This document shows, in pieces, positions 1 to 50,142 of a DNA stretch of 64,000 nucleotides (positions are counted from its first letter, which is position 1; every line of letters begins with the position of its first letter). The notes beneath the pieces were generated by a model. It was given only the letters and a program-made list of their open reading frames with translations, did no database searches and was not told the origin of the DNA. Source of the stretch: Deltaproteobacteria bacterium (GTDB taxonomy: Bacteria; Myxococcota; Kuafuiibacteriia; Kuafuiibacteriales; Kuafuiibacteriaceae). A program made the position numbers and the translations under genes. Location: the NCBI GenBank assembly GCA_040218735.1, contig JAVJQW010000043.1:64001-128000 (forward strand). Direction: 5' to 3'.

Positions 1-727
1 GCAATCCGAACCGACGCCCGGGGCTTGGGCGCAGTCGGTTGCGAAGATTTCCCACCTCACGATCGTCCCGCCGCCGGGGCCGGACCCGTGGAGCGCGACG
101 CACCTCGCACCCGACGCGTTTGCGCCGACGTCGATCTCCTTTCTCCCGCTCGCTGGCCTCCTCGGTCGTCGTGAACAGGCCAACCGCGACGGGCGTCCGG
201 TCATCGTCGCGGATCCGCAGAGCAACCTCGAAGCGGCGCGCCGCGAGGTCGAGGCGCTGCACCCCGGCGCCCTACGTCTGGTCGGACCCACCGCGACCCG
301 GCGCGCCGTGCTCGGTGCGCTCGACGGCGCGACGCACTTTCACTTCTCGGGCCACGGGGCGCTCCAGGCCGACCGCCCCTGGGACGCTCGACTGCTCCTC
401 GCCGCCGGTGAGTCACTCTCCGTCGAAGACCTGCTCATCGTCCGTCCGTCCGTCGCCCACGTCGTTCTGATCGGCTGCCGCACCGGGCGCTCCGCGAAGC
501 TGAGCCGGACGGCTTACCTCGGGCTCGCGGAGGCGTTCCTCCTCGTGAGCGCCTCGTCCGTCGTCGCGAGCACACGCGACGTCGAGGACGAGTTGTCGCG
601 ACGGTTCGTGCGGGCGTTCTACGCGGCGGGCGGTGCCGACGATCCGTTCCGCGCGTACGCGACGGTGGCCCGCGACGATCCGCGGCTCGCCCGCCCGTTC
701 TACGTCGCTGGAGCACCGCGCCCATGA
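1..727 (+). CDS. CHAT-domain (caspase-like, clan CD) protease, 5' part outside the window
   Basis: Frame is open from base 2 to the stop at 727. It carries VIVADPQSNL, the catalytic His motif HFHFSGHG, the catalytic Cys motif VVLIGCRTG and the typical CHAT tail GLAEAFL...VVAS...V.DE. Confidence 0.85.
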   Translation, partial: QSEPTPGAWAQSVAKISHLTIVPPPGPDPWSATHLAPDAFAPTSISFLPLAGLLGRREQANRDGRPVIVADPQSNLEAARREVEALHPGALRLVGPTATRRAVLGALDGATHFHFSGHGALQADRPWDARLLLAAGESLSVEDLLIVRPSVAHVVLIGCRTGRSAKLSRTAYLGLAEAFLLVSASSVVASTRDVEDELSRRFVRAFYAAGGADDPFRAYATVARDDPRLARPFYVAGAPRP

Positions 728-1410
728 ACGACGAGCGCCTGGACTCGCTCCTCGCGCAGGGGCCCGAGCCGGGACCCGAGGGGACCCACGTGGACGACGG
801 CAAGCTCGTCGCGTTCCGGGAAGGGCGGCTCGGTGCCGACGAGATCAATGACGTCGAGGCACACCTCTCTGCGTGTCGCGATTGCCGTGAGCTACTCGAA
901 GAGCTCGCCGTCGACGTCGAGCCCGAGCTGTTCGACCGCGCGCGCGCGGCGGCGCGAAGAAACCGACGCTCCGGGCGTGCGCTCGTCGTCGGCCTCGCGC
1001 TCGCGGCGGCGACGCTCGCGGCGTTCTTCCTCCCGCGCAACGGCCCGTTGCCACCCTACGCGGTGGAGGGGCCGATGGGGGGCCTCACCACGGTGCGCGG
1101 TACGTCGCCCGGCGGCGAGGTCTTCGTTCCGGCGAGCCGCGTCAAGATCCTGCTGAGGCCGGAGCGACCCACACGTCCCCCACGCTTGACCGTGTTCGTC
1201 GTCGATCTCGACGGCACCGACGTCCGCGCGCCCGAGGGCGTCGTCACCGCCGGCGAGCAAGGCGGCTTCAGGGTCGAGTTCACGGCTCGGGATCTATTCA
1301 AGCGAACGTTCGGCACACGCACGGTCCGGCTCGTGCTGTCGGACGGCGCCGCCGAAACGCAGTTCGAGGTCGCGGTCGACTACCGCGAGGAAAGAGGGAG
1401 TGAGAGATGA
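724..1410 (+). CDS. Membrane-bound zinc-finger (zf-HC2/ZAS) anti-sigma factor
   Basis: H-x3-C-x2-C motif (EAHLSACRDC), one TM segment (LVVGLALAAATLAAFFL), then an extracytoplasmic domain. ATGA overlap with the CHAT gene. Confidence 0.8.
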   Translation: MNDERLDSLLAQGPEPGPEGTHVDDGKLVAFREGRLGADEINDVEAHLSACRDCRELLEELAVDVEPELFDRARAAARRNRRSGRALVVGLALAAATLAAFFLPRNGPLPPYAVEGPMGGLTTVRGTSPGGEVFVPASRVKILLRPERPTRPPRLTVFVVDLDGTDVRAPEGVVTAGEQGGFRVEFTARDLFKRTFGTRTVRLVLSDGAAETQFEVAVDYREERGSER

Positions 1411-3698
1411 AACGCCGACAAGCCACCCTGACGGTGCTGATCGTATCGGCGCTGGCGTGCACGACCGCGTCGGAGCCGACGCAGCCCACGGAGAGCGCAT
1501 CGAGGATCCGCGAGCTCGGCCGCCCGTGTCGCTCCGACGCGTTCTTCGTCGACATCCCCGTGAAGCTGGCGATTCCGTCGCACTGGCGGAACGCAGGCTT
1601 CCTCTCGGCGCTCGAAACCAACCTCGAAGCGCTCGCCAACGCGCCGGGCAAGCCGTGGTTCTGTGGTTCGGGCGCGATCACTTGTCCGACGAACGCGGTG
1701 ATCGTCGAAGCCACGTCGCTGCTCCCCGAGCGCTCGACCCCTGCCTGGCGAGCCGACGGTCACCTGCGGCACTTCCGCGTGAAGTTCCGGGAGGCCGGCG
1801 GAGACGGGACGCCGCTCTCCGTTCGGCACCTCGAGCAGTGCAAGGTGGTCGCGACGATCCGCGACGAGTTCGCGCTCGTCGCAGGCGTCGTCGCCGCCGA
1901 CACCCTGTTGGTCGGACGTGAGTGCGACGCATCGGTGGCGGGCGTCGAGGGCGCGCCGAGCGACGAGATGCTCTCGTGGCACCTCACTCGCATCGGACTT
2001 CCGGCCTCCGTGACCGCGGTCGAGCCTCCCGCCTCGTCCACCGTCGACCTCGGGCTCGTCGACTCGGGTGTCATCCCTGAGGTGCAGGCTTCGATCGGCG
2101 TGGCGTCCGAAGACGACCTCGTCGCCGCTCCCGGCCGTCACGTTCACGGGACCGCGCTGGCGATCCTCGCCCGGCAGGTCGCGCCGGAGGCTGCGCTTCG
2201 ATCCGTGCGGGTCCTCGACGCCGGTGGATCCGGGACCAGCGGTGCGCTCGCGCTCGGCCTCGACCAGCTGCTCTTCGACACCACGTCCACGCAGCCGCTG
2301 GTGATCAACCTGAGCCTCGGATGGCCGAAGCAGCTCAGCAACAGCGCCGCGCTGGTCGGTCTCAGCTGCCAGACCCACGAGGACCCGTACGGCGAAGCCG
2401 TGCGCTACGTCCTCGACGTCGCACAGCGCATCGACGCCGCCGGGACCCGTCCGATCTTCGTGGCCTCGTCGGCCGGCAACCTGCCCCTGCCTCCGGACGA
2501 CGCGTTGTTCCCGAACACCGACGGGATGTACGGCCCGGACCCCGACTGCAGCGAGCCCGAGCCGAAGCTCTTCTTCCCCGCCGAGTGGAGCCGCACCGAC
2601 ACCTGCCGCATCGATGTCACGCGGCGCGAGCGCGTCAGCGTTGCGGTGAGCGCGACCGACGACCAAAACCACCGCGCACAGATCTCCATCCCCGGGACGG
2701 AGACGCCGATCGTCGCGCCGGGGCAGCACGTCTACGCCGCCGACGAAGCCGCGCCGCTCACTTCGACGGCCCCGGTGTGTGGCGGAGCGTCGATGGCGTT
2801 CCCGCCGACGGTCACGTTGCCCGTCGCGCTGACGGGGACGTCGGTCAGCTCCGTGTTGGTGTCCGCCGCGGCCGCGCGAGCCCAAGCCGCGTTGATGGCT
2901 GCGGGTGGCGTTCCACTGAAGCGAACCCCGCTCGCTCGCCTGATCTACCTGACGGGGCGCCCCGTGTGTCGCAACACGGCCGAAGGGACGCCGGTGCGCA
3001 TGCTCGACGTCGCGCGTCTGGACGCAGCCATCGCGAACTGTCCGTCCCTCGTTCAGTGCGCGGCGGCCGTTCCGTCTTCCAACGAGTCGATCATCGATAA
3101 ATGGACGCTCGCGGAGTGCAGCATCGAGATCGCCGCCTGCTCCGCGTTGGGCGGGACGCCACCGTGCACGCAGCCGACCTCGGTCGAGTGGCCCAGCGCC
3201 TATATGAACACGCGGGCCGTCTGCAAGCTCGACGTCATCGACGAGCCGCTGAAGCTCGTCTCGAGCTGCACGCCCAACTGTCCCTTCAACAACGGACGTG
3301 ACCGCGCGCTGGTCGGCTCGTTGGGACCGCAGCCCGGCAGCCCGCTCTGCCCGGACTGCCCCGCGCTGATCGACGCGCAGGCGCCGGCCGCCCACCTCGT
3401 CCTCGAGTTGGAGGACACCTACGAGCCGGAGACGACGCTCGCGAACCCGTTCCTCCTGATCTCCGGTCCGCACCCGACGACCGGGCACGTCCAGAAGTTC
3501 CACATCGATCTGTCGAAGGACACGCCGCCGCACATCTGGGTGCCGGGCGCGCACCTCGAGCTCACCGTCTCGCTCGACGGTCCGCAGATCGACTGGGGTC
3601 AGGTCGACGCGATCGATGCCGCGCTCGTCGTCGGCGTCACGCCGCCGGGAGGCAAGGCGTCGACGGACTACTCGCCGCTGCGCGTGGGGCCGCTCTGA
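1407..3698 (+). CDS. S8 (subtilase) serine protease, predicted lipoprotein, Cys-rich
   Basis: Signal peptide ending SALAC. Triad motifs LVDSG (Asp), HVHGT (His), GTSVS (Ser), plus INLSLG and oxyanion-hole SAGN. ATGA overlap with the anti-sigma gene. Confidence 0.85.
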   Translation: MKRRQATLTVLIVSALACTTASEPTQPTESASRIRELGRPCRSDAFFVDIPVKLAIPSHWRNAGFLSALETNLEALANAPGKPWFCGSGAITCPTNAVIVEATSLLPERSTPAWRADGHLRHFRVKFREAGGDGTPLSVRHLEQCKVVATIRDEFALVAGVVAADTLLVGRECDASVAGVEGAPSDEMLSWHLTRIGLPASVTAVEPPASSTVDLGLVDSGVIPEVQASIGVASEDDLVAAPGRHVHGTALAILARQVAPEAALRSVRVLDAGGSGTSGALALGLDQLLFDTTSTQPLVINLSLGWPKQLSNSAALVGLSCQTHEDPYGEAVRYVLDVAQRIDAAGTRPIFVASSAGNLPLPPDDALFPNTDGMYGPDPDCSEPEPKLFFPAEWSRTDTCRIDVTRRERVSVAVSATDDQNHRAQISIPGTETPIVAPGQHVYAADEAAPLTSTAPVCGGASMAFPPTVTLPVALTGTSVSSVLVSAAAARAQAALMAAGGVPLKRTPLARLIYLTGRPVCRNTAEGTPVRMLDVARLDAAIANCPSLVQCAAAVPSSNESIIDKWTLAECSIEIAACSALGGTPPCTQPTSVEWPSAYMNTRAVCKLDVIDEPLKLVSSCTPNCPFNNGRDRALVGSLGPQPGSPLCPDCPALIDAQAPAAHLVLELEDTYEPETTLANPFLLISGPHPTTGHVQKFHIDLSKDTPPHIWVPGAHLELTVSLDGPQIDWGQVDAIDAALVVGVTPPGGKASTDYSPLRVGPL

Positions 3699-3709
3699 GC
3701 GAGTGACCC

Positions 3710-4294
3710 ATGTCCGTCGACGACCGCCAGATCGTCCGCCGCGCGTTCGCGGATGAGGACGACGAAGCGCTGGAGCAGCTGCTCTGTCGCCTCGTTCCCA
3801 TCATCCGCGCGCGCGCCGCGCGGGCGCTGCGAAGAGGCCCGATCGGCGCGCACGACGTCGCGGACCTGGTCCAGGAGATCTGGATTGCGCTGATCGCCGA
3901 CGGCGGTCGCCGTCTGCTGACCTACGACCCCGCGCACGGCCTCACCCTCGAAGGTTTCGTCGGGTTGATCGCCGAGCGTGAGATCGCTTCGATGCAACGT
4001 AAGGTCCTCGCGAAGAAACGCGGCGGCGATCTCCGAATCGTGAGCGACGATGGCCTCACTGTCGCGGCGTGCGGCGGCAACCCCGAGGACGAGGCGGTCA
4101 CCAACGACCTCGCCGCCCGCCTCGCGGCGCACCTCGACGCGCAGCTCCCGGTGCGCGGTCGCCTCGTCTGGCGGCTCGCGTTCAACGACGGTCAGTCGAC
4201 CGCCGAGGTCGCGCGCAACATGGGCGTCAGCCAACAGGTCGTCTACAACTGGCAGCACAAGATTCGCGCGTTGGCGCGTGCGTTCCTGAAGTGA
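3710..4294 (+). CDS. ECF-type RNA polymerase sigma-70 factor
   Basis: 194 aa. Region 2-like DVADLVQEIWIAL and region 4 HTH STAEVARNMGVSQQVVYNWQHKIR. Confidence 0.85.
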   Translation: MSVDDRQIVRRAFADEDDEALEQLLCRLVPIIRARAARALRRGPIGAHDVADLVQEIWIALIADGGRRLLTYDPAHGLTLEGFVGLIAEREIASMQRKVLAKKRGGDLRIVSDDGLTVAACGGNPEDEAVTNDLAARLAAHLDAQLPVRGRLVWRLAFNDGQSTAEVARNMGVSQQVVYNWQHKIRALARAFLK

Positions 4295-4312
4295 GGCGGG
4301 GCGGGGTGGGGT

Positions 4313-4339
4313 GGGCCGGGAGCATCGCGCCCCCGGCCC
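4313..4339. terminator. GC-rich hairpin between convergent genes, possible terminator
   Basis: GGGCCGGG (4313-4320) pairs with CCCGGCCC (4332-4339). No U-tract. Confidence 0.3.
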
Positions 4340-4349
4340 GAGGCTCGGG

Positions 4350-6614
4350 TCACCGCGAGAAGGGCGAGTCCATGCCTTGGTGGAGCTGCTGCCGCAGCAG
4401 GGTGGTGTTGCCGTCCACGACGTAGCCGTACACCGCACCGCCAGGGAGGTTCAGGCCCAACGCGGTCGGCGTCAGCGATTCGGGCGCGCCGACGAACAGG
4501 CGCATCCGCTCGGCGCCGTACACCCCGCCGACCCCCGCGACCAGCGGGTCGATGTGCACCCAACCCGACGCCAGCGACATCCCGAAGCGCTTGGCGTTCG
4601 AGACCGTCAGCAGGTCAGGTCCGTTGCTGACGTTCCAGGTGGTGACGAGGACGCGCTCGACGCGCCCGTCGCCGTCGAAGGGGGCGCCCACGATGATGTC
4701 GTCATCGCCGTCCGCGTCGATGTCCGCGGCGAGCACGGCGTGACCGTAGCGCCCGCCGTCCACGCTGCCGTGGGCGTCGCCGGCCGCGAAGACCGTGCAC
4801 CCCGAGCCGAAGATCTTCTGATAGACCACCACCCGACCCACCTCGGCGTTGCCGCTGCGGTAGCGCGGGGCGCCGATGATCAACTCGTCGGCGGACTCGA
4901 ACTTGCCGCGCACGTTGCCGGTCGTCATGGAGAATCCGAACTCGCTGTTCGACGTCGGCGGCGTGATGTGCTGGTGGGGTTGGAAGTACTGCAAGCCGCC
5001 ACCGCAGAACACGTAGACGTGCTCGCGACCGTAGGCCGGCGCGGCGATCGCGACGTCGGCGTTCCCATCGCCGTCGAAGTCTCCGGTGGTGACCGCGGCG
5101 CCGAGCGTGAAGGGCGGCGTGCCGCCCAGGCCGCTGACGTCGAGGGGGGCCCCCAGGGCCGTGCCGCTGGGATCCAACGTATCGCCGATGAAGAAGTAGG
5201 CTCTGCCGGTCCCGAAGCCGGAGCTCGCCCGAGGAGCGCCGACGATCAGCTCGTCCGTGCCGTTGCCGTTGCCGTCGCCCGTCGCGAGGGCGGCGCCGAA
5301 CCAGTCGCCGCTGGCCTCGGCGACGCCGGAGATCGAGCTGCCGCTGAGGATGCGCCACGGGGTCAGAGGCTCGTAGTCGCTGTCGACGCACGTCGGGCAG
5401 TTCGTGTCCGTCGCTTGCGGTTGCATGTTGGCCTGGGCGAACTGGCCGCCGCCGAAGATCGAGACCGTGCCGGACGCGATGCCGAACGGGCTGAGCGCGC
5501 CGGGCGCGCCGACGGCGAGGTCGGGGAACTGATCTCCGTCGAAGTCACCCACCGCGAGCGCGGCGCCGAAGCGATCGTCGTTGCCGTGCAGGCCGCCGAC
5601 GTCCGCGTAGCGCAGGACGCGCCAGGGGACGGGCGTGCGCGCGGTGCCCTTGTAGACGAGCACGGCGCCGAACGTCGTCGAGCCGGGTCCGGCCTCACCG
5701 GGCACGCCGACGGCGATGTCGTCGTAGCCGTCCTGGTCGAAGTCGGCGACGACCATCGCTGCGCCCATGTCCTCGTTCGGGAGCGGTGTGCTCAGCGGCT
5801 CGGCGTACATCAACCACAGCGCGTTGATGTCGTGTTTGGTCGGGAGGTTGTTCGTCGCGATGGCGGTCTGGGTGCCCGGCACGTCCGGGGCGGTGTCGAC
5901 ACCGGCGCGGGCCTTCAGCGTCTGATTCGTCGTGACGTAACCCTCGGTCGTGAGTGACGTCGTGGTCTCGCAGACGAACTGCGGAGGCGTCACCGTGTAG
6001 TCCCAGACCGGCGTGCAGAACAGGTTCGTGCCGTAGTGCATGACCGACTGGTGGTCGTAGGGCGTGAGCTTCGAGTGGTCGTTCGGATCCTTGATTTCGA
6101 AGTTGTGCGCCTTGTCAGCGATGTTGGCGTGGATCACCGTGACGTAGTCGTCCCGGTCGGGCCGTTGGTGCTCGTGCCTCAGGCCGAGGATGTGGCCGAC
6201 CTCGTGAATCGCCGTGCGTACGCCTGCGTTGTCCGTGAGGTGGACGACCGACTTTCCGCCGCCCGTACCGTTCTTGGCGTGTGACCCGCCGTTCGTGTCG
6301 GGCTCGCGCTGGAACAGGATGTAGTCGCCGCTGCCGCTCGGGACCTGGATGAACTGAAGCGGCACGCGCGCTTCGAGGGCGTCGACCGCTTGTTCGACGG
6401 CGCCGACGACGTCCGCGGGGAGCACCTTGTCGGCGTCGGACCCCGAGTAATACGTGTACTGGACGACGTTGCTCGGCCAGCGCGTCCCGAGGTCGTTCCT
6501 CGCGTAGACCTCGTCGGTCGTCGTCTCGGCCTCCACCGCTTCGGGCAGCTCACCCGAGCAGGCCGTGAGCCACAGCGTCGCCCACGCGAGGTGAGTCTTG
6601 GTTGGATGTTTCAT
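4350..6614 (-). CDS. Astacin-family (M12A) zinc metalloprotease fused to seven FG-GAP repeats, predicted lipoprotein
   Basis: Lipobox LTAC. Zinc motif HEVGHILGLRHEHQRPDRD, Met-turn SVMHY, and seven FGAALAxGDFDGDG...GAP-type repeats. Confidence 0.88.
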   Translation of the reverse strand: MKHPTKTHLAWATLWLTACSGELPEAVEAETTTDEVYARNDLGTRWPSNVVQYTYYSGSDADKVLPADVVGAVEQAVDALEARVPLQFIQVPSGSGDYILFQREPDTNGGSHAKNGTGGGKSVVHLTDNAGVRTAIHEVGHILGLRHEHQRPDRDDYVTVIHANIADKAHNFEIKDPNDHSKLTPYDHQSVMHYGTNLFCTPVWDYTVTPPQFVCETTTSLTTEGYVTTNQTLKARAGVDTAPDVPGTQTAIATNNLPTKHDINALWLMYAEPLSTPLPNEDMGAAMVVADFDQDGYDDIAVGVPGEAGPGSTTFGAVLVYKGTARTPVPWRVLRYADVGGLHGNDDRFGAALAVGDFDGDQFPDLAVGAPGALSPFGIASGTVSIFGGGQFAQANMQPQATDTNCPTCVDSDYEPLTPWRILSGSSISGVAEASGDWFGAALATGDGNGNGTDELIVGAPRASSGFGTGRAYFFIGDTLDPSGTALGAPLDVSGLGGTPPFTLGAAVTTGDFDGDGNADVAIAAPAYGREHVYVFCGGGLQYFQPHQHITPPTSNSEFGFSMTTGNVRGKFESADELIIGAPRYRSGNAEVGRVVVYQKIFGSGCTVFAAGDAHGSVDGGRYGHAVLAADIDADGDDDIIVGAPFDGDGRVERVLVTTWNVSNGPDLLTVSNAKRFGMSLASGWVHIDPLVAGVGGVYGAERMRLFVGAPESLTPTALGLNLPGGAVYGYVVDGNTTLLRQQLHQGMDSPFSR

Positions 6615-6722
6615 GGTCGTTCCTTCCTCGAGCGCGCGGGGGGGCGCATCGATCTGGGGCCGACTACGGGAGGTGGGGGCCGTTCCTTTTCTGCGGTCGG
6701 GCTTCGAGGGTTTTCGATCTGC

Positions 6723-6738
6723 TTGACTGACGAGTCAA
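6723..6738. promoter_or_regulatory. Palindromic operator-like site TTGACT-N4-AGTCAA
   Basis: Perfect 6-bp inverted repeat ending 21 bp before the ATG of the MFE-2-like gene, in an AT-richer patch. Confidence 0.5.
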
Positions 6739-6759
6739 TCAATCCCAACAAGGGGACCC

Positions 6760-9702
6760 ATGGGGACCCTCCGCTTCGACGGTAAGACCGTCATCGTCAC
6801 CGGCGCCGGCAACGGGCTCGGCCGCGCGCACGCGCTCCTGTTCGGGAGCCGCGGCGCGAACGTCGTGGTCAACGACCTCGGCGGGAGCATGCACGGCGGG
6901 GGCAAGAGCAGCGCCGCCGCCGACGAGGTGGTCGAGCAGATCAAGGCGGCGGGCGGGAACGCGGTCGCGAACTACGACTCGGTCGAGGACGGCGCGAGCA
7001 TCGTGAAGACGGCGATGGACGCGTTCGGGCGGGTCGACGTGCTCGTGAACAACGCGGGCATCCTCCGCGACAAGTCGTTCGCGAAGATGACGGAGGAGGA
7101 CTGGGAGCTCGTCTACCGCGTGCACGTCCTCGGCGCGTTCCGTGTGACGCACGCGGTCTGGCCGATCATGCGCGAGCAGCAGTATGGGCGCATCGTCATG
7201 ACCGCGTCGGCGGCCGGGCTGTACGGCAACTTCGGACAGGCGAACTACGCGATGGCGAAGCTCGGGCTCGCGGGCTTTTCGAACACCCTCGCGATCGAGG
7301 GCCGCACGAAAAACGTGCACGTGAACACGATCGCGCCGATCGCCGGCTCACGGCTGACCGAGACGGTGATGCCGCAGGAGCTCGTCGACGCGCTGAAGCC
7401 CGAGTACGTCTCGCCGCTCGTCGCGTACCTCTGCCACGAGGACACCGAGGAGACGGGCGGCATCTTCGAGGTGGGCGGTGGGTTCTTCGGCAAGCTGCGC
7501 TGGGAGCGCAGCGTTGGATCGATGACGCGGCTTGGGCGAGAGATCACGCCCGAGATCGTCGCGAGCCACTGGGACAGCATCGCGGGCTTCGACGAGACGA
7601 CGCACCCCGCGGACGTGATGGGGTCGATGCAGCCGATCGTCGAGAACGTCAGCGCCGGTCCGAGCCGGGGCGGCAACGAATTCATCGACGTCGACGCCGC
7701 GCTCGGCGCCGAGCTCCCGGCGGTGAAGACGAAGTACGACGAGCGCGACCTCGCGCTCTACGCGTTGGGCGTGGGGGCCGCGGAGGACCCGTCGGGCGCG
7801 GACCTCCCGCTCGTGTACGAGCTGCACAACGAGGGCTTCAAGGCGCTGCCGACCTATGCGGTGGTGCCCGCGGTGAACGCGTTCCTGAACGCGATGAAGG
7901 ACGGCCTCAGCGTGCCCGGGTTGAACTACGGGCTCGACCGCGTCCTGCACGGCGAGCAGCGCACGACGCTGATTCGCCCGCTGCCGAAGAACGCGACGCT
8001 CACGCACAAGGCGCGCGTGAAGAACATCTTCGACAAAGGCAAACACGGGATCGTCGAGATCGAGACGAAGACCTACGACGAAGACGACGATCTGCTGTGC
8101 ATCAACGAGATCGTGATCGTCGTGCGCGGCGCCGGCGGTTGGGGCGGTGAGCGTGGCGAGTCGAGCGAGGCGAAGCCGATCCCCGAGACGAAGCCGGACG
8201 CTGTCGTCGAGGAGAAGACCCACGACAACCAAGCGCTGCTCTACCGCCTCTCCGGGGACTGGAACCCGCTGCACGCCGATCCGCAGTTCGCGAAGATGTT
8301 CGGCTTCGACCGGCCGATCCTCCACGGGCTCTGCACGCTCGGCTTCGCGGGGCGGCACGTGGTGCAGGCGTTCGCGAACAACGACCCGCGCTACGTGAAG
8401 CGCATCGGCGTTCGGTTCGCGGACAGCGTGTTCCCGGGCGAGACGCTCGTGACCGAGATGTGGAAGCAGGACGGCGCGATTCGTTTCGTGACGAAGGCGA
8501 AGGAGCGCGACTCGGTGGTGCTCAAGGACGGCGTCATCGAGCTGTTCGACGAGATTCCGAAGAAGGCACCGAAGTCGAAGACGATCGAGCTGCCGGTCTC
8601 CGACGAAGGCGCGACCGCGGTGCCGACGAGCGCGGACGTGTTCACGGCGATTCGGCGTTACATCGAAGCGAATCCGTCGCTCGCGAAGAACGTGCAGACG
8701 GTGTTCCGCTTCGAACTGTCGAACCCCGGTAGCGCGTGGACGATCGATCTGAAGAAGGGCGAGGTGCACGTCGGGCGGGACGGCGATGCAGACACCACGC
8801 TCGCGCTGACCGACGACGACTTCATGAAGATGTGCACCGGCGAGGCCGACGCACAGAAGATGTTCATGAACGGGCAGCTGAAGATCACGGGCAACGTGAT
8901 GGCGTCGCAGAAGCTGGAGTTCCTGAAGAAGCTCGACCCCGCGTGGGTGTTCGAGGCGGCCGCGGAGCGAGGTGGCGGCGCGGCGCCGGTCGTGAGCGAC
9001 GAGCCCACGAGCTGGGACGTCTTCATCGCGATCGAGGACCACGTGAAGCGGAACCCGGACCTCGTCGCGAAGATCGGCATGGTCTACCGCTTCGACCTCA
9101 CGGACCCGAGCACCACGTGGACAATCGATCTGAAGAACGGCGCGGTCGTCGAGGGGGCGCCCGCGAGCGCGGACTGCACGCTCACGCTATCGGACGCCGA
9201 CTTCATGGCGATGACCAAGGGCGAGGCGGATCCGCAGAAGCTCTTCATGGGTGGGCAGCTGAAGATCAGCGGCAACATCATGGCGTCGCAGAAGCTCGAG
9301 TTCCTGCAGAAGATGGATCCCGAGGAAGCGAAGGCCGCGGTGATCGCGGCGCGCAAGGCGGGGCGCGGACCTTCGGCGAACGAAACGACGACCGCGGACG
9401 CGCCTTCGGCCTCGCAGGCGGAGGCGATCGCGAAGCAGATCGAGGCGCAGCTCGCGGAGGCGAAGGACCTCGCGGGGACGGTTCAGATCCTGCTGACGGA
9501 TCCGGACGCGGCGATGACGGTCGACGCGTCGGCGGTGAAGCTGGAGCGCGCGTCGGAACCGTCGGCGACGGTCACGGTTGCGCAGGACGACCTGCTCGGC
9601 CTGTTGAAGAAGGAGAAGTCCGCGCAGGAGCTGTTCCAGCGCGGCGAGCTCAGGATCGACGGTGACCTCGACGTCGCCCGACGCCTCTGGTTCATTCGGT
9701 AA
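6760..9702 (+). CDS. Multifunctional enzyme type 2-like protein: SDR 3-hydroxyacyl-CoA dehydrogenase + MaoC-type enoyl-CoA hydratase 2 + three SCP2 domains
   Basis: [12 protein letters not shown] and YAMAK (SDR). [14 protein letters not shown] (hydratase 2). Three SCP2-like units ending [16 protein letters not shown] and GELRIDGD. Confidence 0.92.
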
Positions 9703-9716
9703 AGGAGATCGAGAGC

Positions 9717-10898
9717 ATGAAACGCAAAACGAACGTCATCGGCGTGGGCATGATCAAATTCGCGAAGCCCGGCGCGAGCGACGACTACCACGTGATGGCG
9801 AAGAACGCGGCGCACGCCGCGCTCGAAGACGCCTCGGTCCCCTACGACGCCGTCGAGCAGGCGTACGCCGGTTACGTCTACGGCGACAGCACCTGCGGGC
9901 AGCGCGCGCTGTACGAGGTCGGGCTCACGGGCATCCCGGTGTTCAACGTGAACAACAACTGCTCGACCGGTTCGACCGCGTTGATGCTCGGGCGTCAGGC
10001 GATCGAAGCGGGCGTCGCGGAGTGTGTGTTGGTCGTCGGCTTCGAGAAGATGGAGCGCGGCGCACTCGGCGCGAAGTACACCGACCGTACGAGCCCGATC
10101 GAGCTGCACGCCAACGTGATGAGCAAGGTGCAGGGCTTCTCGAACGCGCCGCCGACCGCGCAGATGTTCGGCGGGGCGGGGCGTGAGTACCGTTGGAAAC
10201 ACGGCACGAAGCGCGAGACGTTCGCGAAGATCTCCTCCAAGGCGCGCTCCCACGCGGCCAACAACCCGTACGCGTTGTTCAACCAGCCGCTGACGGTGGA
10301 AGAGGTCATGGCGTCGCCCGAGGTGTTCGATCCGCTGACGCGGTTCCAGTGCTGCCCGCCCACGTGCGGTGCGGCGGCGGCGGTCCTCGCGTCCGAAGAG
10401 TTCGCGAAGAAACACAACATCGACAACCCGGTCTACATCGCGTCGCAGGCGATGACGACGGACTACGCGTCGTCGTTCGAGTCGGACTCGATGATCAAGA
10501 TGGTCGGCTTCGACATGACGAAGAACGCCGCGAAGAAGGTCTACGAGGACACGGGCATCGGGCCGGACGACGTCGACGTCGTCGAGCTGCACGACTGCTT
10601 CACCGCGAACGAGCTGCTCACCTACGAGGCGCTCGGGCTGTGCGACGAGGGCCAGGCCGAGAAGTTCATCTGGGACGGCGACAACACGTACGGCGGCAAG
10701 TTCGTCACGAACCCGTCCGGTGGCCTCCTCTCGAAGGGGCACCCCCTCGGCGCGACGGGCCTCGCGCAGTGCACGGAGCTCGTGTGGCAGCTGCGCGGAC
10801 AGGCCGACAAGCGCCAGGTCGACGGCGCGCGCGTCGCGCTCCAGCACAACCTCGGCCTCGGCGGCGCCTGCGTGGTGACGATGTACCGCAGGGATTAG
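9717..10898 (+). CDS. SCP2-type (SCPx-like) thiolase / 'lipid-transfer protein'
   Basis: [22 protein letters not shown] and QHNLGLGG motifs. AAGGAG ribosome-binding site. Confidence 0.92.
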
Positions 10899-16381: not shown

Positions 16382-16627
16382 TCACCCCGAATGAGGGGCG
16401 ATCCGCCACAGCTCGGCCTCGTGAGAGATCTCTTCGGCCATCTTGTAGGCGGTGTAAGCGGCGACGATGTGGCAGACCCAACCGATGGCGCCCCCGGTCC
16501 CCACCCAGAAGCCGGGGGTGATGACCAGCCAGAACAGGCCGCGCAAGAAGTGTCCGTTGTAGATCTGCCCCAGGCCGGGGATGAGGAACGAGAGGACGGC
16601 CGCGAGGCCGGGGTTCTTGATGTCCAT
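16382..16627 (-). CDS. Small membrane protein (TM2-like)
   Basis: KNPGLAAVLSFLIPGLGQIYNG motif and two hydrophobic segments. Confidence 0.75.
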   Translation of the reverse strand: MDIKNPGLAAVLSFLIPGLGQIYNGHFLRGLFWLVITPGFWVGTGGAIGWVCHIVAAYTAYKMAEEISHEAELWRIAPHSG

Positions 16628-16753
16628 GCCCTCTCAAATTAGGTCCCCGCGCCGCCTCGTCCAGTGACGGCCCTCCCGTTCAACACCGCGGCGCTGTTCG
16701 CTATTCACCTTCCGCCCCTCGCCGTGGTACCGCCGCCGCGCGGAGGTTCGAAC

Positions 16754-19425
<2,672 letters not shown>

Positions 19426-19429
<4 letters not shown>

Positions 19430-20877
19430 CCCGAGCCCGACTATTCGCCGTGGCGCTGCTCGCCGCGGCGTGCGCCGAGGATGTGCCCGGCACGCCGCCG
19501 CCGGAGCAGGAGGTGTACTTCCCGCTCGGCGCCGAGGTCGTCACGCTCGACGACGCGGGCGAAGTGCTCGTCGTCGTGAACAGCAACTTCGACCAGCGCT
19601 ACAACGCCGGCTACGTCAGCACGTACAGCGTCGAGACGCTGACCTCGCTCGCCGGCTCCGGTGACGTGACGACGTTCGTCGACAGCCTCGAGGCCGCCTT
19701 CATCAGTCGCGTGCGCATCGAACAGTTCGGCGGCGACATCACGCTCAGCGACGGGACGCCACGTCGGGTCTTCGTCGCGTCGCGCGGGCGCAACGTCGTC
19801 ACGATGATCGGCCTCGCCGAAGACGGGACGCTGTTCTGTGACGACAGCCCTTCCGCGAAGCGCAGCGACGCCTTCGACTGCACGGCGGCGCACGAGGTGC
19901 GTACGTTTGCGGACGATCCGTTCCCCGTCGCGTTCGTTCCGCAGGACGGCGCCGGAAACGCCGTGGCGACGCTCGCCGTCGGGCACCTCACGGTGCGCGA
20001 CCTGGGCATCCGGAGCGACGCGGTCGTTCGGACCATCGAGTATCCGCGGTACGAAGAACGCGTCGCGCAGGACGTCGACCCCGAGGTCCACGTCTTCGAT
20101 CCGACCGAGACGAGCACCATCGGCCGCGAGGGCTTCTCGCAGGCCCAGTTCTCCAACAACGGCGGCGTCGCGGGGCTGGTGTTCTCGCCGCAGGCCGGGT
20201 TCGCTGCCACCGATGGCTCGCCGGCGGGCCGACTGCTCATCGCCTCCGCCGGGCAGCTGAACGTCTCCAACTCCCTCACGATCATCGCCGGGATCTTCGA
20301 AGACGGTGTCCTGCGGGCGAGCGGCACGCCGCTAGCGCTCGACGTCGCGACCTCCGCGATCCAGACCCGAGGCATCCGCGCCACCGCAGACGGTCGCCGC
20401 GCGTACGTCGGGATTCGCTTCCAGGAGGGGCAGACGATCACGCAGTTCAACTCGGGCGTCGCGATCGTCGACACGTCGTCGGCGTCGCCGCAGTTCGTGT
20501 CGGTGTTCGAGGTCGGCGAGGAGGGCTCGCGCCCCTCGCTCGTCGAGCGCGCCGACGCGCGGCTCCTCTACATCCCGGACCTGCGCCTCGACCGCATCTT
20601 CATCCTCGACGTCACCAACGACGAGCCGACGCTCGTGGGCAGCATCGTCGGTCGCGCGAACCGCGTGGTGAACGGCGAGCAGATCCAGGCGCGCACGCTC
20701 GCGTCGCCCGCGCAGGTTGCGTTCACGGCGGACGGCAACTTCGGGTTCGTGACCAACTTCCTCAACAGCACGATCGCCGTGCTGGATACGAGCGATCCGG
20801 ACCCGCGCAAACACCGGGTGATCGCCCGCCTCGGTCGCAACATCGATCCCGAAGGCGACATGGAGATGCCGCAGTGA
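19426..20877 (+). CDS. Lipoprotein, probable beta-propeller (YncE-like)
   Basis: Lipobox LAAAC, repeated beta-strand units, GTGA overlap with ppdK. Confidence 0.7.
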
Positions 20878-23153
20878 AACGCGCCGCCGTCATCCTGACC
20901 CTCGCCGCGTTGGTGTGGGGCTGCGACCAGGACCCGCCCGTGGAGAGCGCGAACATGCGTCGGCCGTCGGGGCTGCTCGCGATCGATCGCACGGTGTCGG
21001 AGACCTCGACCCGCTCCGACGTCCTGATCGTCGACTCCGAAGCCCAGGGCGTTCGTGTCCTGCAGTACCTCCACACCGACGACGGCGGCCTCGGGAAGCG
21101 CTTCCTCCCCGGACCGGTCGTCTTTTTCCCGCTGCTGGTCGCCGCGCCCGGGTATCCGACGCGTATCGCGATGAACGACGACGCCAACCGCGCCTTCGTC
21201 ATCGCGACCGTCGATGTGGGGCTCGACCTCGACACCGTGCGCGAGGGGCGAAGCTACGTTCACGTGCTCGACGTCCCGGAGCTGTCGACGACGGACCGCA
21301 TCACGCCGAACGACCACGTCCTGATCAACAGCCTCGACATCACGGAGCCGGAGCCGGGCGAAGTGTTCGTGCCCGTCGACATCGTCTCGCTCGGCGAGGT
21401 CGGCACGGGGACCTCGGCGGCGGACCGTGTCGCGGTCGGCTTCGACGCGCTGGGCTCGGGGGCAGGGCGCGTCGCCGTCTACGATTTCCTCCACAGCATC
21501 GCGGTGGGCTCGGCCGATCTCACGATCGAGCCGGTCGGCGTCTACGAGGTGCCGGGGGGCGTCTCCGATCTCGAGGTGCACAACGGTCGCGTCTACACCA
21601 CGAGCATCTTCGACAGCGCGACGAGCGCGCTGGCCAACGTCGTGACGGAGGTGCATCCGCTGCTCGGGGCCGTCCGCTCGTTGAACGCGGGCGGACCGAC
21701 GAGCGGTCTGCTCTCCGCGGGGCCGTTCGGGTTGCTCGCGCTCCGCGCCGACATCCCGTCGGTGGTGGTGTTCGACGGGGACCCCCTGAACCGCGCGACG
21801 CGCGTCTATCCTTCTCCGTACACGCCCTTGGAGGAGCGTGGTCAGGGGGGCGACGAGCTCGGGCGCATCGATCTTCGTGACTCCCCGCTGGGTCCCGCGG
21901 CCTTCGCGCCCAACGTTCCGATCCTGACCGTCAGCTCCGCGACGAGCGGCGAGAACGCGCCGGTGGTGATGGTGACGCACGCGAACGGGTTTGCTTCGTT
22001 CCTCTACGCGTCGGCCGACGATCCGAGCTCACCCGAGACGTTCGGCCTGGGGGTGGTGTCGGAGCCCGCGCCGACCGGCATCTATCTCGCGAACGGCGTG
22101 GCGAGCATCGCCGGGTGTGTCGCGGACACGACGCTCGACGTGGGCGACGCCAACCCCGAGTGTGAGGAGCCCATCGTCCAGGTCGCGACGCCCGGAGCGG
22201 GGCGGTATCGCGCGCGCTTCCGTGGGGCGATGGTCCGTTCGCGGAACGGGAACTGGGCGCCGACTTCCGCCTCGGAGCCGCGGGGCATCCTGTCGGACTA
22301 CGCGGGGATTTCGTACGTCGATCGGCAGGTTCGGGCGGGCGATCTCGTGAAGATGACGGCGCTCGACTTCGCGAACTGCCGAGGCGAAGACGACGAGGCT
22401 CCCGACGAGATCGAATACGACGGGGTCGTCACCGTGGTTCGCGACACTTCGGTCGAGATCGAGCTCACCGACGCGGCGCCGGGCTGCACCACGGGATCGT
22501 TCGACGTGTTCTTCTACGAGATCTTCCCGAGCGGCGATGAAGGCGTGCTCGTACAGCTCAGCGCCGGCGCGATCGTGGACGTCATCGAGCGTGTCCCCAG
22601 CACGCCGACGGAAGTCGCGCAGCAGGTCCGCATGACCTTCGGCGGCTCGCGACGCCCGAATGGGCTCCCGCCGCCGCTGGCCTTCGACCTCCTGACGAAC
22701 GATGCGTGCTCGCCGGGGACCACCGGAGACATCTGCAGCAGCTTGCTGGAGTGCGGGGCGGGGTGGGGCTGCGTCGCGCCGAACTTCAACTCGACGACCG
22801 AGGAGGAGGAGGAGGAGACCCCCGAGCCCACGGACGGCGAGCACGTCCCGACCCGCGTCGCGGGGCTGGCGCGCTGCGAGCCCTCGGTGTGCCCGCAGGC
22901 CGTGGGCACCTGCATGACCACGGCGTTCGACCGCGGTTGCCCGGGGCTGGAGGTCACGGTGCTCGGAACGCTCTCCGCGGAGGCGGATCTGAAGCAGGAC
23001 TCGGGTCAGCTGGCCTCTTCGGTGCCCTCTGCGGCCCCGGACGACGCCGTCTCGTTCGACGCCGGGCGGCACTTCCTGGTCTCCTATCCGGGCGCACGGA
23101 GCGTCGTCGAGGTCCGCACGGGATCCACGCTGGTCTTCGACCAGATCCGCTGA
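20874..23153 (+). CDS. Large lipoprotein, beta-rich with Cys-rich C-terminal part
   Basis: Lipobox VWGC, GTGA overlap with the preceding gene, host-like codon usage. Confidence 0.7.
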   Translation: MKRAAVILTLAALVWGCDQDPPVESANMRRPSGLLAIDRTVSETSTRSDVLIVDSEAQGVRVLQYLHTDDGGLGKRFLPGPVVFFPLLVAAPGYPTRIAMNDDANRAFVIATVDVGLDLDTVREGRSYVHVLDVPELSTTDRITPNDHVLINSLDITEPEPGEVFVPVDIVSLGEVGTGTSAADRVAVGFDALGSGAGRVAVYDFLHSIAVGSADLTIEPVGVYEVPGGVSDLEVHNGRVYTTSIFDSATSALANVVTEVHPLLGAVRSLNAGGPTSGLLSAGPFGLLALRADIPSVVVFDGDPLNRATRVYPSPYTPLEERGQGGDELGRIDLRDSPLGPAAFAPNVPILTVSSATSGENAPVVMVTHANGFASFLYASADDPSSPETFGLGVVSEPAPTGIYLANGVASIAGCVADTTLDVGDANPECEEPIVQVATPGAGRYRARFRGAMVRSRNGNWAPTSASEPRGILSDYAGISYVDRQVRAGDLVKMTALDFANCRGEDDEAPDEIEYDGVVTVVRDTSVEIELTDAAPGCTTGSFDVFFYEIFPSGDEGVLVQLSAGAIVDVIERVPSTPTEVAQQVRMTFGGSRRPNGLPPPLAFDLLTNDACSPGTTGDICSSLLECGAGWGCVAPNFNSTTEEEEEETPEPTDGEHVPTRVAGLARCEPSVCPQAVGTCMTTAFDRGCPGLEVTVLGTLSAEADLKQDSGQLASSVPSAAPDDAVSFDAGRHFLVSYPGARSVVEVRTGSTLVFDQIR

Positions 23154-48906: not shown

Positions 48907-50142
48907 ATGGCCACCGAAGTGATGCCCGGGAACGACCTGATCTACGACTGGAACGAGATCGACCGTCGGGGCCCGGTCCTCAAGAAGAAGCCGGAGTTCG
49001 ACGACGAGACGCTCCGCGACGGCATCCAGTCCCCGTCCGTCACCGACCCGTCCATCGAGGACAAGCTGAAGATCCTCCACCTCCAGGCGAAGATCGGCGT
49101 CACCACCAGCGACATCGGCCTCCCGGGGGCCGGACCGCGCGCCTACAACGACGTGCTGCGCCTCGCGCAGGAGATCGCCAACCAAAAGCTCGACATCCAG
49201 GCCAACTGCGCCTGCCGCACCGTTCAGGCCGACATCGCCCCGGTCGTCGACGTCAGCCAGAAGGCCGGCATCCCGATCGAGGTCTACACCTTCATCGGCA
49301 GCTCCCCGATCCGCCAGTTCGCGGAGTCGTGGACCGTCGACCACATCCTCGAGACCAGCGAAGCGGCCATCAAGTTCGCGGTGGGCGAGGGCATGGACGT
49401 CGCGTACGTCACCGAGGACACCACGCGCAGCCACCCGAAGGACCTCGACCGCCTCTTCCGCCACGCGATCGACTGCGGCGTGAAGCGCCTCGTCCTCTGC
49501 GACACCGTCGGCCACTCCACGCCGGACGGCATCTTCAACCTCATCCGCTGGACGAAGGGCCTCATCGCCGGGATGAACGTCGACGTGAAGATCGACTGGC
49601 ACGGCCACAACGACCGCGGCCTGGGCGTGACGAACGCGATCATCGCGCTCGAAGCCGGCGCTGACCGCGTCCACGGCACGTGCCTCGGCATCGGCGAGCG
49701 CGTCGGCAACGCGGCGCTCGACCAGGTGCTCGTGAACCTCAAGCTCCTCGGCCACCTCGAAAACGACCTCACGTCGCTCCTCGAGTACTGCCAGACCGTG
49801 TCGCGCGCGTGTGACTGGCCCATCCCGCGCAACTACCCGCTCGCCGGGACCGACGCCTTCTGCACCGCGACCGGCGTGCACGCCGCCGCGATCGTGAAGG
49901 CCTTCGACCGCGACGACACCTGGCTCGCCGACCGCGTCTACTCCGGCGTCCCCGCCGGCCTGTTCGGCAAGGAGCAGGAGATCCAGATCGGGCCGATGAG
50001 CGGCATGTCGAACGTGCGCTACTGGCTGAAAAAGCGCGGCCACGAGTTCGACAAGGAGCTCGGCAAGAAGATCCTCGACAAGGCGAAGCAGTCGGCGCGG
50101 ACCCTCACGGACGACGAGATCCAGGCCGTCATCGACGCCTGA
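48907..50142 (+). CDS. 2-isopropylmalate synthase-family (DRE-TIM) enzyme without regulatory domain
   Basis: DETLRDGIQSP, LCDTVG, HGHNDRG and GIGERVGN in 411 aa. Confidence 0.85.
   Translation: MATEVMPGNDLIYDWNEIDRRGPVLKKKPEFDDETLRDGIQSPSVTDPSIEDKLKILHLQAKIGVTTSDIGLPGAGPRAYNDVLRLAQEIANQKLDIQANCACRTVQADIAPVVDVSQKAGIPIEVYTFIGSSPIRQFAESWTVDHILETSEAAIKFAVGEGMDVAYVTEDTTRSHPKDLDRLFRHAIDCGVKRLVLCDTVGHSTPDGIFNLIRWTKGLIAGMNVDVKIDWHGHNDRGLGVTNAIIALEAGADRVHGTCLGIGERVGNAALDQVLVNLKLLGHLENDLTSLLEYCQTVSRACDWPIPRNYPLAGTDAFCTATGVHAAAIVKAFDRDDTWLADRVYSGVPAGLFGKEQEIQIGPMSGMSNVRYWLKKRGHEFDKELGKKILDKAKQSARTLTDDEIQAVIDA

Follow-up and report, generated by a model that had tools for sequence, protein, structure and literature searches.

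A 64,000-nucleotide stretch of contig JAVJQW010000043.1 (positions 64,001 to 128,000; assembly GCA_040218735.1, Deltaproteobacteria bacterium), hereafter the window, opens with four co-oriented genes, for a TPR-CHAT cysteine protease, a transmembrane (TM) anti-sigma factor, a subtilisin-type (S8) protease and a sigma factor of extracytoplasmic function (ECF) type (Table 1). ATGA overlaps at 724-727 and 1407-1410 join the first three genes and an 11-bp gap (3699-3709) precedes the fourth, as a first-pass annotation had described; the CHAT His and Cys and the S8 Asp/His/Ser triad that it reported are likewise in place. The Pfam matches of all four genes lie above the curated cut-offs, and the closest named homologues of window proteins come from Deltaproteobacteria/Myxococcota assemblies. 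The cassette is real, conserved and mechanistically suggestive, and is probably CHAT-controlled ECF signalling in a new form.

Table 1. Features of the cassette and of its predicted target gene, in window coordinates
Coordinates	Strand	Feature	Basis or detail
2..727	+	TPR-CHAT cysteine protease of exported type, 5′-open; 241 aa, the 3′ end (residues 645-885); start precedes the window	CHAT E 5e-22
353-355; 476-478	+	CHAT His762 (HFSGHG); Cys803 (LIGC)	sequence
724..1410	+	Predicted single-pass anti-sigma factor, 228 aa	zf-HC2 E 8.8e-5
		Anti-sigma layout	cytoplasmic ZAS/ASD helices (H48, C52, C55); TM 86-104; extracytoplasmic Ig-like beta-sandwich ~105-222
1078..1101	+	Anti-sigma juxtamembrane loop G119-G120-x4-R125-G126	predicted CHAT cleavage site (putatively after R125)
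1407..3698	+	Pro-subtilisin (S8) zymogen of exported type, 763 aa	Peptidase_S8 E 6.3e-8
		S8 layout	lipoprotein-type signal; prodomain ~43-180; catalytic domain D219/H247/N358/S479; Cys-rich region; C-terminal beta-rich domain
3710..4294	+	ECF sigma factor, distinct subfamily, 194 aa	Sigma70_ECF E 2.5e-5; region-4 signature QVVYNW
4350..6614	-	Astacin (M12A) zinc protease with FG-GAP repeats, lipoprotein-type signal; convergent with cassette	predicted sigma target
6664..6689	-	Predicted promoter AAAG(G/A)-16 bases-CGTAG	50 bases separate its end from the astacin start codon

The S8 protein is a member of a distinct family, with 187 representatives at E <= 0.001; scanning genomes with an alignment of 16 S8 sequences matched 145 stretches and confirmed 15 loci from 10 genomes. 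When six-frame translations were searched with profiles, 11 of these loci, from seven of the genomes, proved to hold all four genes; at one of the 11 (L011) a contig edge cuts the CHAT gene before its dyad. The remaining four loci end within or beside the cassette: L004 holds CHAT, anti-sigma and S8 genes, L003 S8 and sigma, L006 S8 and anti-sigma, and L013 S8 alone, with no CHAT in 9.5 kb upstream. This co-occurrence rejects chance adjacency of the four genes, and the first-pass annotation, which would have given up its reading had the S8 gene not travelled with the other three, is upheld here. The TM anti-sigma gene was found at 13 of the 15 loci, and it is separate from the TPR-CHAT gene in the window and at every locus having both. 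Five gene orders occur; that of the window is found at seven loci, CHAT-S8-anti-sigma-sigma and CHAT-S8-sigma-anti-sigma at one each, and a divergent CHAT gene at two. One genome has four paralogous cassettes. The locus record titles name Myxococcota, Polyangia, Nannocystaceae, Myxococcales, Deltaproteobacteria or only "bacterium". Among 12 cassettes, the anti-sigma, S8 and sigma distances, which are near saturation and include an outlier (the L014 sigma), correlate modestly in Mantel tests (rho 0.41-0.46, p 0.005-0.015). Both the CHAT and the S8 trees hold a well-supported clade of L007, L010, L014 and L009. At L014 (11987-13434) the sigma factor is of another subfamily (28-34% identity to the rest), with a different gene order and no promoter motif, suggesting that the sigma/anti-sigma pair was exchanged there while CHAT and S8 remain in the L007/L010 clade.

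The start of the CHAT gene, which the first-pass annotation could not see, can be read from protein P0196 (885 aa), which matches all 241 residues of the window fragment at 100% identity and is taken on that basis as the same gene. P0196 opens with a hydrophobic segment that has no Cys, followed by TPR-like repeats and then CHAT; its TPR match is weak and below the Pfam cut-off, while TPR_12 scores above the cut-off in the L008 protein. A hydrophobic segment also starts 12 of 12 locus CHATs (12-mer, mean Kyte-Doolittle value 1.77-2.69), followed by a Cys in 11 as judged by eye; a strict lipobox pattern fits six and a loose one ten, both patterns being our own. Because the full CHAT and all 12 relatives begin with such an export-type segment, the TPR-CHAT protein is predicted to be extracytoplasmic, and both proteases to be envelope proteins; the first-pass annotation had put the S8 there, correctly as far as can be predicted, without the CHAT. 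A cytoplasmic CHAT was rejected on the same N-termini. The dyad (H762/C803) is kept in 16 of the 16 sequences that reach it, among 17 aligned. The best PDB match of the family profile is 8rot, a 991-aa CHAT protein (E 1.2e-11) whose length and dyad numbering are those of DdvA, and a profile of the CHAT domain alone prefers DdvA (E 2.6e-14) to Csx29 (~2e-4). Since the TPR-CHAT profile matches 8rot and the anti-sigma profile matches the N-terminal domain of DdvA, the first two cassette genes correspond by homology to the two ends of DdvA. P0200, another TPR-CHAT relative, carries a lipoprotein signal, and fused ahead of its TPR-CHAT part is a thioredoxin-like domain (WCLPC; AhpC-TSA matched weakly at E 0.0039) that might hold the catalytic Cys in reduced form outside the cytoplasm.

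The anti-sigma factor of the window has the H-x3-C-x2-C motif of ZAS class I in its N-terminal helical domain and a single TM segment (mean hydropathy 2.26). Both had been pointed out in the first-pass annotation; the zinc ligands are retained in six of 14 relatives and lost in eight, so they do not define the family, and redox or zinc sensing is rejected as its input. The profile matches ChrR, 3hug_B and the DdvA N-terminal domain 8rlz (E 0.0036). An AlphaFold model (mean pLDDT 79.9) has N-terminal helices, a poorly predicted TM segment and a confident beta-sandwich cap, Ig-like in fold, whose best match (Z 8.8, root-mean-square deviation (rmsd) 2.5, 96 aligned) stands little above many similar ones. 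Some 15-22 residues outside the membrane is the GG-x4-RG loop, with Arg in 13 of 14 relatives and G119, G120 and G126 in 13, 12 and 11 of 13.

We modelled TPR-CHAT residues 40-885 with anti-sigma residues 105-228, from our own alignments and with three controls. The complex scores 0.62, against 0.00 for the best control; 116 of 157 solved complexes attained this value, as did two of 215 mismatched pairs, a benchmark that applies roughly, given our own alignments. Contact agreement among runs is at least 92% and partner pLDDT at least 81. In the modelled interface, CHAT segments 760-764 and 801-804, which hold the dyad, contact anti-sigma residues 119-127; a second patch, with the lowest expected errors, sets CHAT 560-566 on anti-sigma 143-150 and 175-183. 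The model thus supports CHAT/anti-sigma binding with the GG-x4-RG loop at the His/Cys dyad, and this placement points to CHAT as the site-1 protease. Comparison of the anti-sigma and TPR-CHAT family profiles gave no homology (probability 4.9), and no fused anti-sigma/TPR-CHAT form was found among 8000 scored candidates of 479-2000 aa, a weak piece of evidence.

The S8 protein is predicted from its sequence and fold to be an active, exported protease. D219, H247, S479 and the oxyanion N358 do not vary across an alignment of 35 sequences, 128 of the 128 relatives that cover the triad (150 examined) keep it whole, and the model (pLDDT 86.5, pTM 0.90) best matches unprocessed pro-subtilisin E (Z 24.7, rmsd 3.2, 324 aligned), so that the Peptidase S8 hallmarks of Asp/His/Ser triad, oxyanion Asn and subtilisin fold with prodomain are all present. 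The lipobox of the first-pass annotation, a fit of the window N-terminus to a Prosite-style pattern of our own, does not define the family: among 126 full-length relatives 109 have a hydrophobic N-terminus and 51 the lipobox pattern. We see no sign that CHAT cuts S8 at an RG-type motif, since no S8 column reached 50% conservation for such a site in the 35 sequences. Residues 637-652 (~3315-3362), situated after the Cys-rich region and before the C-terminal domain, form a conserved G-x-LGPQP-x4-CP-x-C motif with P643, C648 and C651 invariant in the same alignment.

The sigma factor matches TIGR02937 above its cut-off (E 8.4e-15) and has 45 homologues; residues Q176-W181 (QVVYNW) are invariant in 36 aligned sequences. 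The nearest solved sigma is 9isn (E 2.2e-10), while the ShbA model falls far below its cut-off. Upstream of 14 cassette starts AAAG...TAG is enriched at fixed spacing. The derived motif, AAAG(G/A)-N16-(C/A)GTAG, has eight distinct sites in 284 kb, seven at cassettes and one in the window, with 13 overlapping matches versus 0-3 in eight simulations. A matrix was then trained on eight locus sites from other genomes (the seven pattern sites and, added by eye, that of L015), with the window excluded; in leave-one-out trials the left-out site ranked first at seven of the eight loci and second at one. The L015 site falls inside the start of a divergent CHAT gene, and codons may contribute to it. In the window the best score among 127,940 positions is that of the site before the astacin gene, at 24.1 bits, where the maxima of 12 simulated windows are 12.6-17.4 bits; the plain IUPAC pattern by itself is not significant in the window, matching in 20 of 100 shuffles. 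A second window site at 49963 (15.3 bits) was rejected as within the null range, and a sigma-70 promoter scan of 3600-6900 found none. Wherever a site faces a cassette, the S8 gene is downstream of it. At L011, L012 and L015 the CHAT gene is outside the reach of the site, and the 400 bases upstream of each of these CHATs hold no site.

Relaxed sites with other -10 hexamers, chosen afterwards by eye, are present at L003, L005, L007, L008, L009 and L010. The same -35 A-tract and 16-base spacer were seen by eye at L007 6402, L010 6319, L009 2357, L008 165 and L001 6402/6342, with -10 variants CGAAC, CGAAG, TGAAT and AGTA; the CGAA type tracks one sigma clade. A/T tracts upstream of several sites seem to resemble the target of CarD-CarG at DdvS promoters.

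Because the best-scoring promoter site is directly upstream, the astacin/FG-GAP gene is a probable target of the sigma factor. Its product matches Astacin (E 7e-23) and FG-GAP (E 2.2e-39) and has the zinc motif HEVGHILGLRH and a lipobox pattern. Other genes behind such sites also encode secreted or surface proteins, a class common in these genomes: a lipoprotein and a matrixin at L001, an RHS/SpvB-type protein at L003, and unknown secreted proteins at L008 and L009. The L003 gene (3076-6927, + strand), which directly follows the sigma gene and has a promoter-like site ahead of it, encodes a large RHS/SpvB/FG-GAP toxin-like lipoprotein. The flanks of the L008 cassette (223-3168 and 9593-10541) encode two related lipoproteins and a 780-aa secreted protein whose repeats are acidic and calcium-binding-like; these flanking proteins gave no Pfam match.

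Published systems are compared here from PMC11506125, PMC6061681, PMC7826278, PMC8999054, PMC10028731, PMC9729208, bioRxiv 10.1101/2023.06.23.546230 and bioRxiv 10.1101/2019.12.11.873521. In the account that we favor, the anti-sigma factor would span the inner membrane and, judging by family and adjacency, hold the ECF sigma factor with its cytoplasmic domain. The exported TPR-CHAT protein would be a dedicated site-1 protease, activated through its TPR region by an envelope signal and cutting the GG-x4-R/G loop, as the modelled docking suggests, ~20 residues outside the membrane to remove the Ig-like cap. With CHAT in the envelope, a third protease would be required for the membrane step; by analogy to DdvA, an RseP-type membrane protease, for which the cassette has no gene, and cytoplasmic proteases would then free the sigma factor. 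For DdvA, the proposal is that CHAT makes the site-1 cut close to the membrane and RseP acts next, and RseP-dependent degradation after removal of the outer domain has been demonstrated (PMC11506125). The freed sigma factor would transcribe AAAG(G/A)-N16-CGTAG promoters, those of its own operon and of adjacent secreted-protein genes, here astacin; pro-S8 would be an active, sigma-induced, fixed member of the cassette. Up to transcription, this regulated-proteolysis switch would resemble a split DdvA/DdvS pair with CHAT as site-1 protease, and we consider it fairly probable. Within it, the gene content, conservation, intact catalytic sets, topology signals and promoter motif are observed, and the engagement of the anti-sigma loop by CHAT is modelled. 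The two-protease relay of the first-pass annotation keeps its central idea, anti-sigma proteolysis, which the complex model supports; a better drawing of it gives the site-1 cut to CHAT in the envelope and the membrane step to a third protease, presumably of RseP type.

Several points weigh against this account. The loci were chosen through S8, so cassettes lacking it are invisible to the scan. CHAT distances do not correlate significantly with those of the other three genes in the 12 cassettes (rho 0.00-0.33, p 0.05-0.48). The start codons of the locus CHATs were picked by eye, the CHAT of the window itself lacks the lipoprotein Cys, and the database relatives P0199 and P0201 show no signal in their annotated form. 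Solved CHAT-substrate complexes exist (Csx29-Csx30), and the model may be partly memory of them; conservation at the interface does not significantly exceed that in the remainder of the domain (0.49 vs 0.43, p 0.14). In the L008 anti-sigma factor Gln replaces the loop Arg. In separase, P1 Arg is read by an Asp (D2151; K670 is the Craspase equivalent), which aligns near CHAT position 844, where the family has no Asp, leaving Arg specificity without pocket support. The conserved acidic interface residues D715 (16 of 17 sequences) and D840 (15 of 16, plus one Glu) could serve Arg recognition in its place; the idea that D840 is itself the separase Asp was not borne out by the alignment. No promoter site is found at L014, where the sigma is an outlier, or before the L005 CHAT. 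Proteolytic activity of CHAT has yet to be reported even for DdvA (PMC11506125).

S8 may instead be the protease that makes the site-1 cut, with CHAT acting at another step, the arrangement closest to the relay first proposed. The triad intact in every relative covering it, the predicted export of S8 to the membrane side of the anti-sigma cap, and the anti-sigma/S8 distances, the most significantly correlated of the six gene pairs (rho 0.42, p 0.0045), are in keeping with it, as is the ECF33 group, which has a TM zinc anti-sigma factor, a subtilase at +2 and no CHAT listed. Against it, the conserved loop is docked at the CHAT dyad in the model, and a CHAT exported as its N-terminus predicts cannot supply an inner, cytoplasmic cut; we judge it unlikely. 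Slightly more unlikely still is that the loop is a pseudo-substrate, anti-sigma factor and TPR-CHAT being held in stable mutual inhibition, as within DdvA, until a signal or S8 dissociates them and exposes the anti-sigma factor to other proteases. The expected errors of the second patch and the Gln of one cassette would suit such a lock, and the TPR-CHAT domain of DdvA is described as sterically blocking RseP (PMC11506125). A purely steric cap would have no need of the dyad kept in every complete CHAT, and the small Gly residues flanking Arg look like those of a scissile loop.

The cassette could also be an anti-phage alarm like DdvA/DdvS, with defence genes as output. Homology to DdvA invites this, and a PtuB-like HNH gene lies ~5.5 kb from the L010 cassette. 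The L009 cassette has beside it, ~3.5 kb from its sigma gene, a gene for a 1841-aa TIR-CHAT-TPR protein (16441-21966, - strand) with an AAA ATPase neighbor. PADLOC was applied to 77 proteins (46 of the window including P0196, and 31 chosen locus neighbors within 10 kb); the matches listed are four kinases, one TIR and one HNH, with no Cas or CBASS among the best matches listed. No CRISPR array was found in the 16 sequences (window and 15 loci), and in these sequences the genes behind the predicted promoters encode secreted proteases and surface proteins; we hold this alternative very unlikely. A CRISPR-like flag at L010 1854-2377 proved to be an intergenic tandem repeat with 42/86-base spacing, not a CRISPR array, and had no Rfam match; the Rfam scan of the window and L010 gave none either. 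A redox- or zinc-sensing ZAS switch with the proteases as passengers, which the intact H-x3-C-x2-C of the window protein and the ChrR match might recall, is highly improbable, given that the eight ligand-less relatives keep the fold pattern, TM segment and RG loop and that the proteases are conserved at 11 of 15 loci.

Returning to the CHAT-triggered switch, the part of S8 in it can be drawn in several ways. Its place downstream of the sigma-type promoter wherever a site was found, with CHAT outside that reach at three loci, suits an induced enzyme of feedback or processing no less than a trigger acting upstream. It could well act on signalling proteins as trigger or amplifier, at somewhat short of even chances; with a little less confidence, it could be secreted cargo itself or a cargo-maturing enzyme; that it resets the switch is a more doubtful suggestion. 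Its presence in every paralogous cassette while cargo varies favors a cassette-specific job. As a speculative extension that we think doubtful as a whole, the envelope might hold a self-amplifying zymogen cascade, in which pro-S8 senses, for example, prey or foreign proteins and activates TPR-CHAT by limited proteolysis, CHAT cuts the anti-sigma factor at R125, and RseP frees the sigma factor for more pro-S8 and cassette-specific cargo (astacin, matrixin, RHS-type protein); paralogous cassettes would then be channels insulated by their -10 variants (CGTAG, CGAA, TGAA, AGTA).

The closest known relative is DdvA/DdvS of Myxococcus xanthus (PMC11506125, PMC6061681; 8rot, 8rlz), which shares with the cassette a ZAS-type domain, one TM helix, the TPR-CHAT His-Cys dyad, an ECF sigma factor, extracytoplasmic TPR-CHAT (predicted for the cassette) and CGT at -10. 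In DdvA the ZAS domain, TM helix and TPR-CHAT form one polypeptide, whereas in the cassette anti-sigma factor and TPR-CHAT are separate, the former having its own Ig-like cap and conserved RG loop, and pro-S8 is a fixed addition. The DdvS promoter is GTAA-n16-CGT, while the cassette -35 is AAAG(G/A). DdvA/DdvS controls an adjacent CBASS/CRISPR island, but the cassettes, within the 10 kb scanned, neighbor secreted proteases and surface proteins.

The association of CHAT, subtilase and ECF sigma factor is already in print for ECF54, without an anti-sigma factor (PMC7826278, PMC8999054): subtilase (0.68 per ECF) and TPR-CHAT (0.71 per ECF) genes lie nearby, and proteolytic control has been proposed. 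Sharing this neighborhood, the cassette differs in having a TM anti-sigma factor and in belonging, where loci are named, to Myxococcota/Deltaproteobacteria; ECF54 is described as 100% actinobacterial. At +1 ECF54 also has a carboxypeptidase-regulatory-like gene, and its promoter, GTATCAG/CTCC, is unlike that of the cassette. No carboxypeptidase-regulatory-like Pfam match was found on the cassette anti-sigma factor, whose Ig-like beta-sandwich cap may be analogous. ECF33 of Proteobacteria (PMC7826278) has a one-TM zinc-finger anti-sigma factor at +1 and, in two subgroups, a subtilase at +2, as in the cassette; the context given there lists no CHAT, and its -35 motif is TGAACCTTT versus AAAG(G/A).

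In the type III-E Craspase system (Csx29/Csx30/CASP-sigma; PMC10028731, PMC9729208), TPR-CHAT cuts a separate sigma inhibitor in trans, as is predicted for the cassette, and the sigma motif autoregulates its own locus. Craspase is cytoplasmic, RNA-activated through Cas7-11 and, as described there, without S8; the cassette has export-type N-termini, and our scans gave no Cas match among the best ones listed for the 77 proteins and no CRISPR array in the 16 sequences. The Haliangium type III-B SAVED-CHAT/PCaspase/PCc-sigma cascade (bioRxiv 10.1101/2023.06.23.546230) likewise sets two proteases beside a sigma factor in a myxobacterium. There the proteases act in series on a cyclic-oligoadenylate trigger, the second is a caspase, and the sigma factor itself is cut; the cascade as outlined has neither the membrane anti-sigma factor nor the subtilase of the cassette. 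No title or abstract start in our literature search described the four-gene myxobacterial cassette, a search by word matching that covered few subscription papers and perhaps not the later ECF groups.

The DdvA structure paper proposes its periplasmic CHAT as the anti-sigma site-1 protease, calls such autoproteolysis unprecedented, and holds validation impossible until the signal is found (PMC11506125). The cassette offers the same chemistry in trans, with a predicted scissile loop and a predicted reporter promoter; since enzyme and substrate are apart, the question of CHAT as site-1 protease becomes testable with purified parts. It is also a concrete model for the ECF54 neighborhoods, and possibly a way for uncultured myxobacteria to switch on secreted proteases.

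The plasmid collection held no TPR-CHAT or sigma match. As leads only, ESM Atlas places S8-like clusters mostly in Gemmatimonadota/Bacteroidota (0.92-0.93, 132-144 shared features) and look-alikes of the anti-sigma cap, all below 0.9, in Acidobacteriota. Divergent from the astacin gene, the window (6760-9702, + strand) encodes a eukaryote-like multifunctional beta-oxidation enzyme, with a short-chain dehydrogenase, an MFE-2 hydratase and three SCP2 domains.

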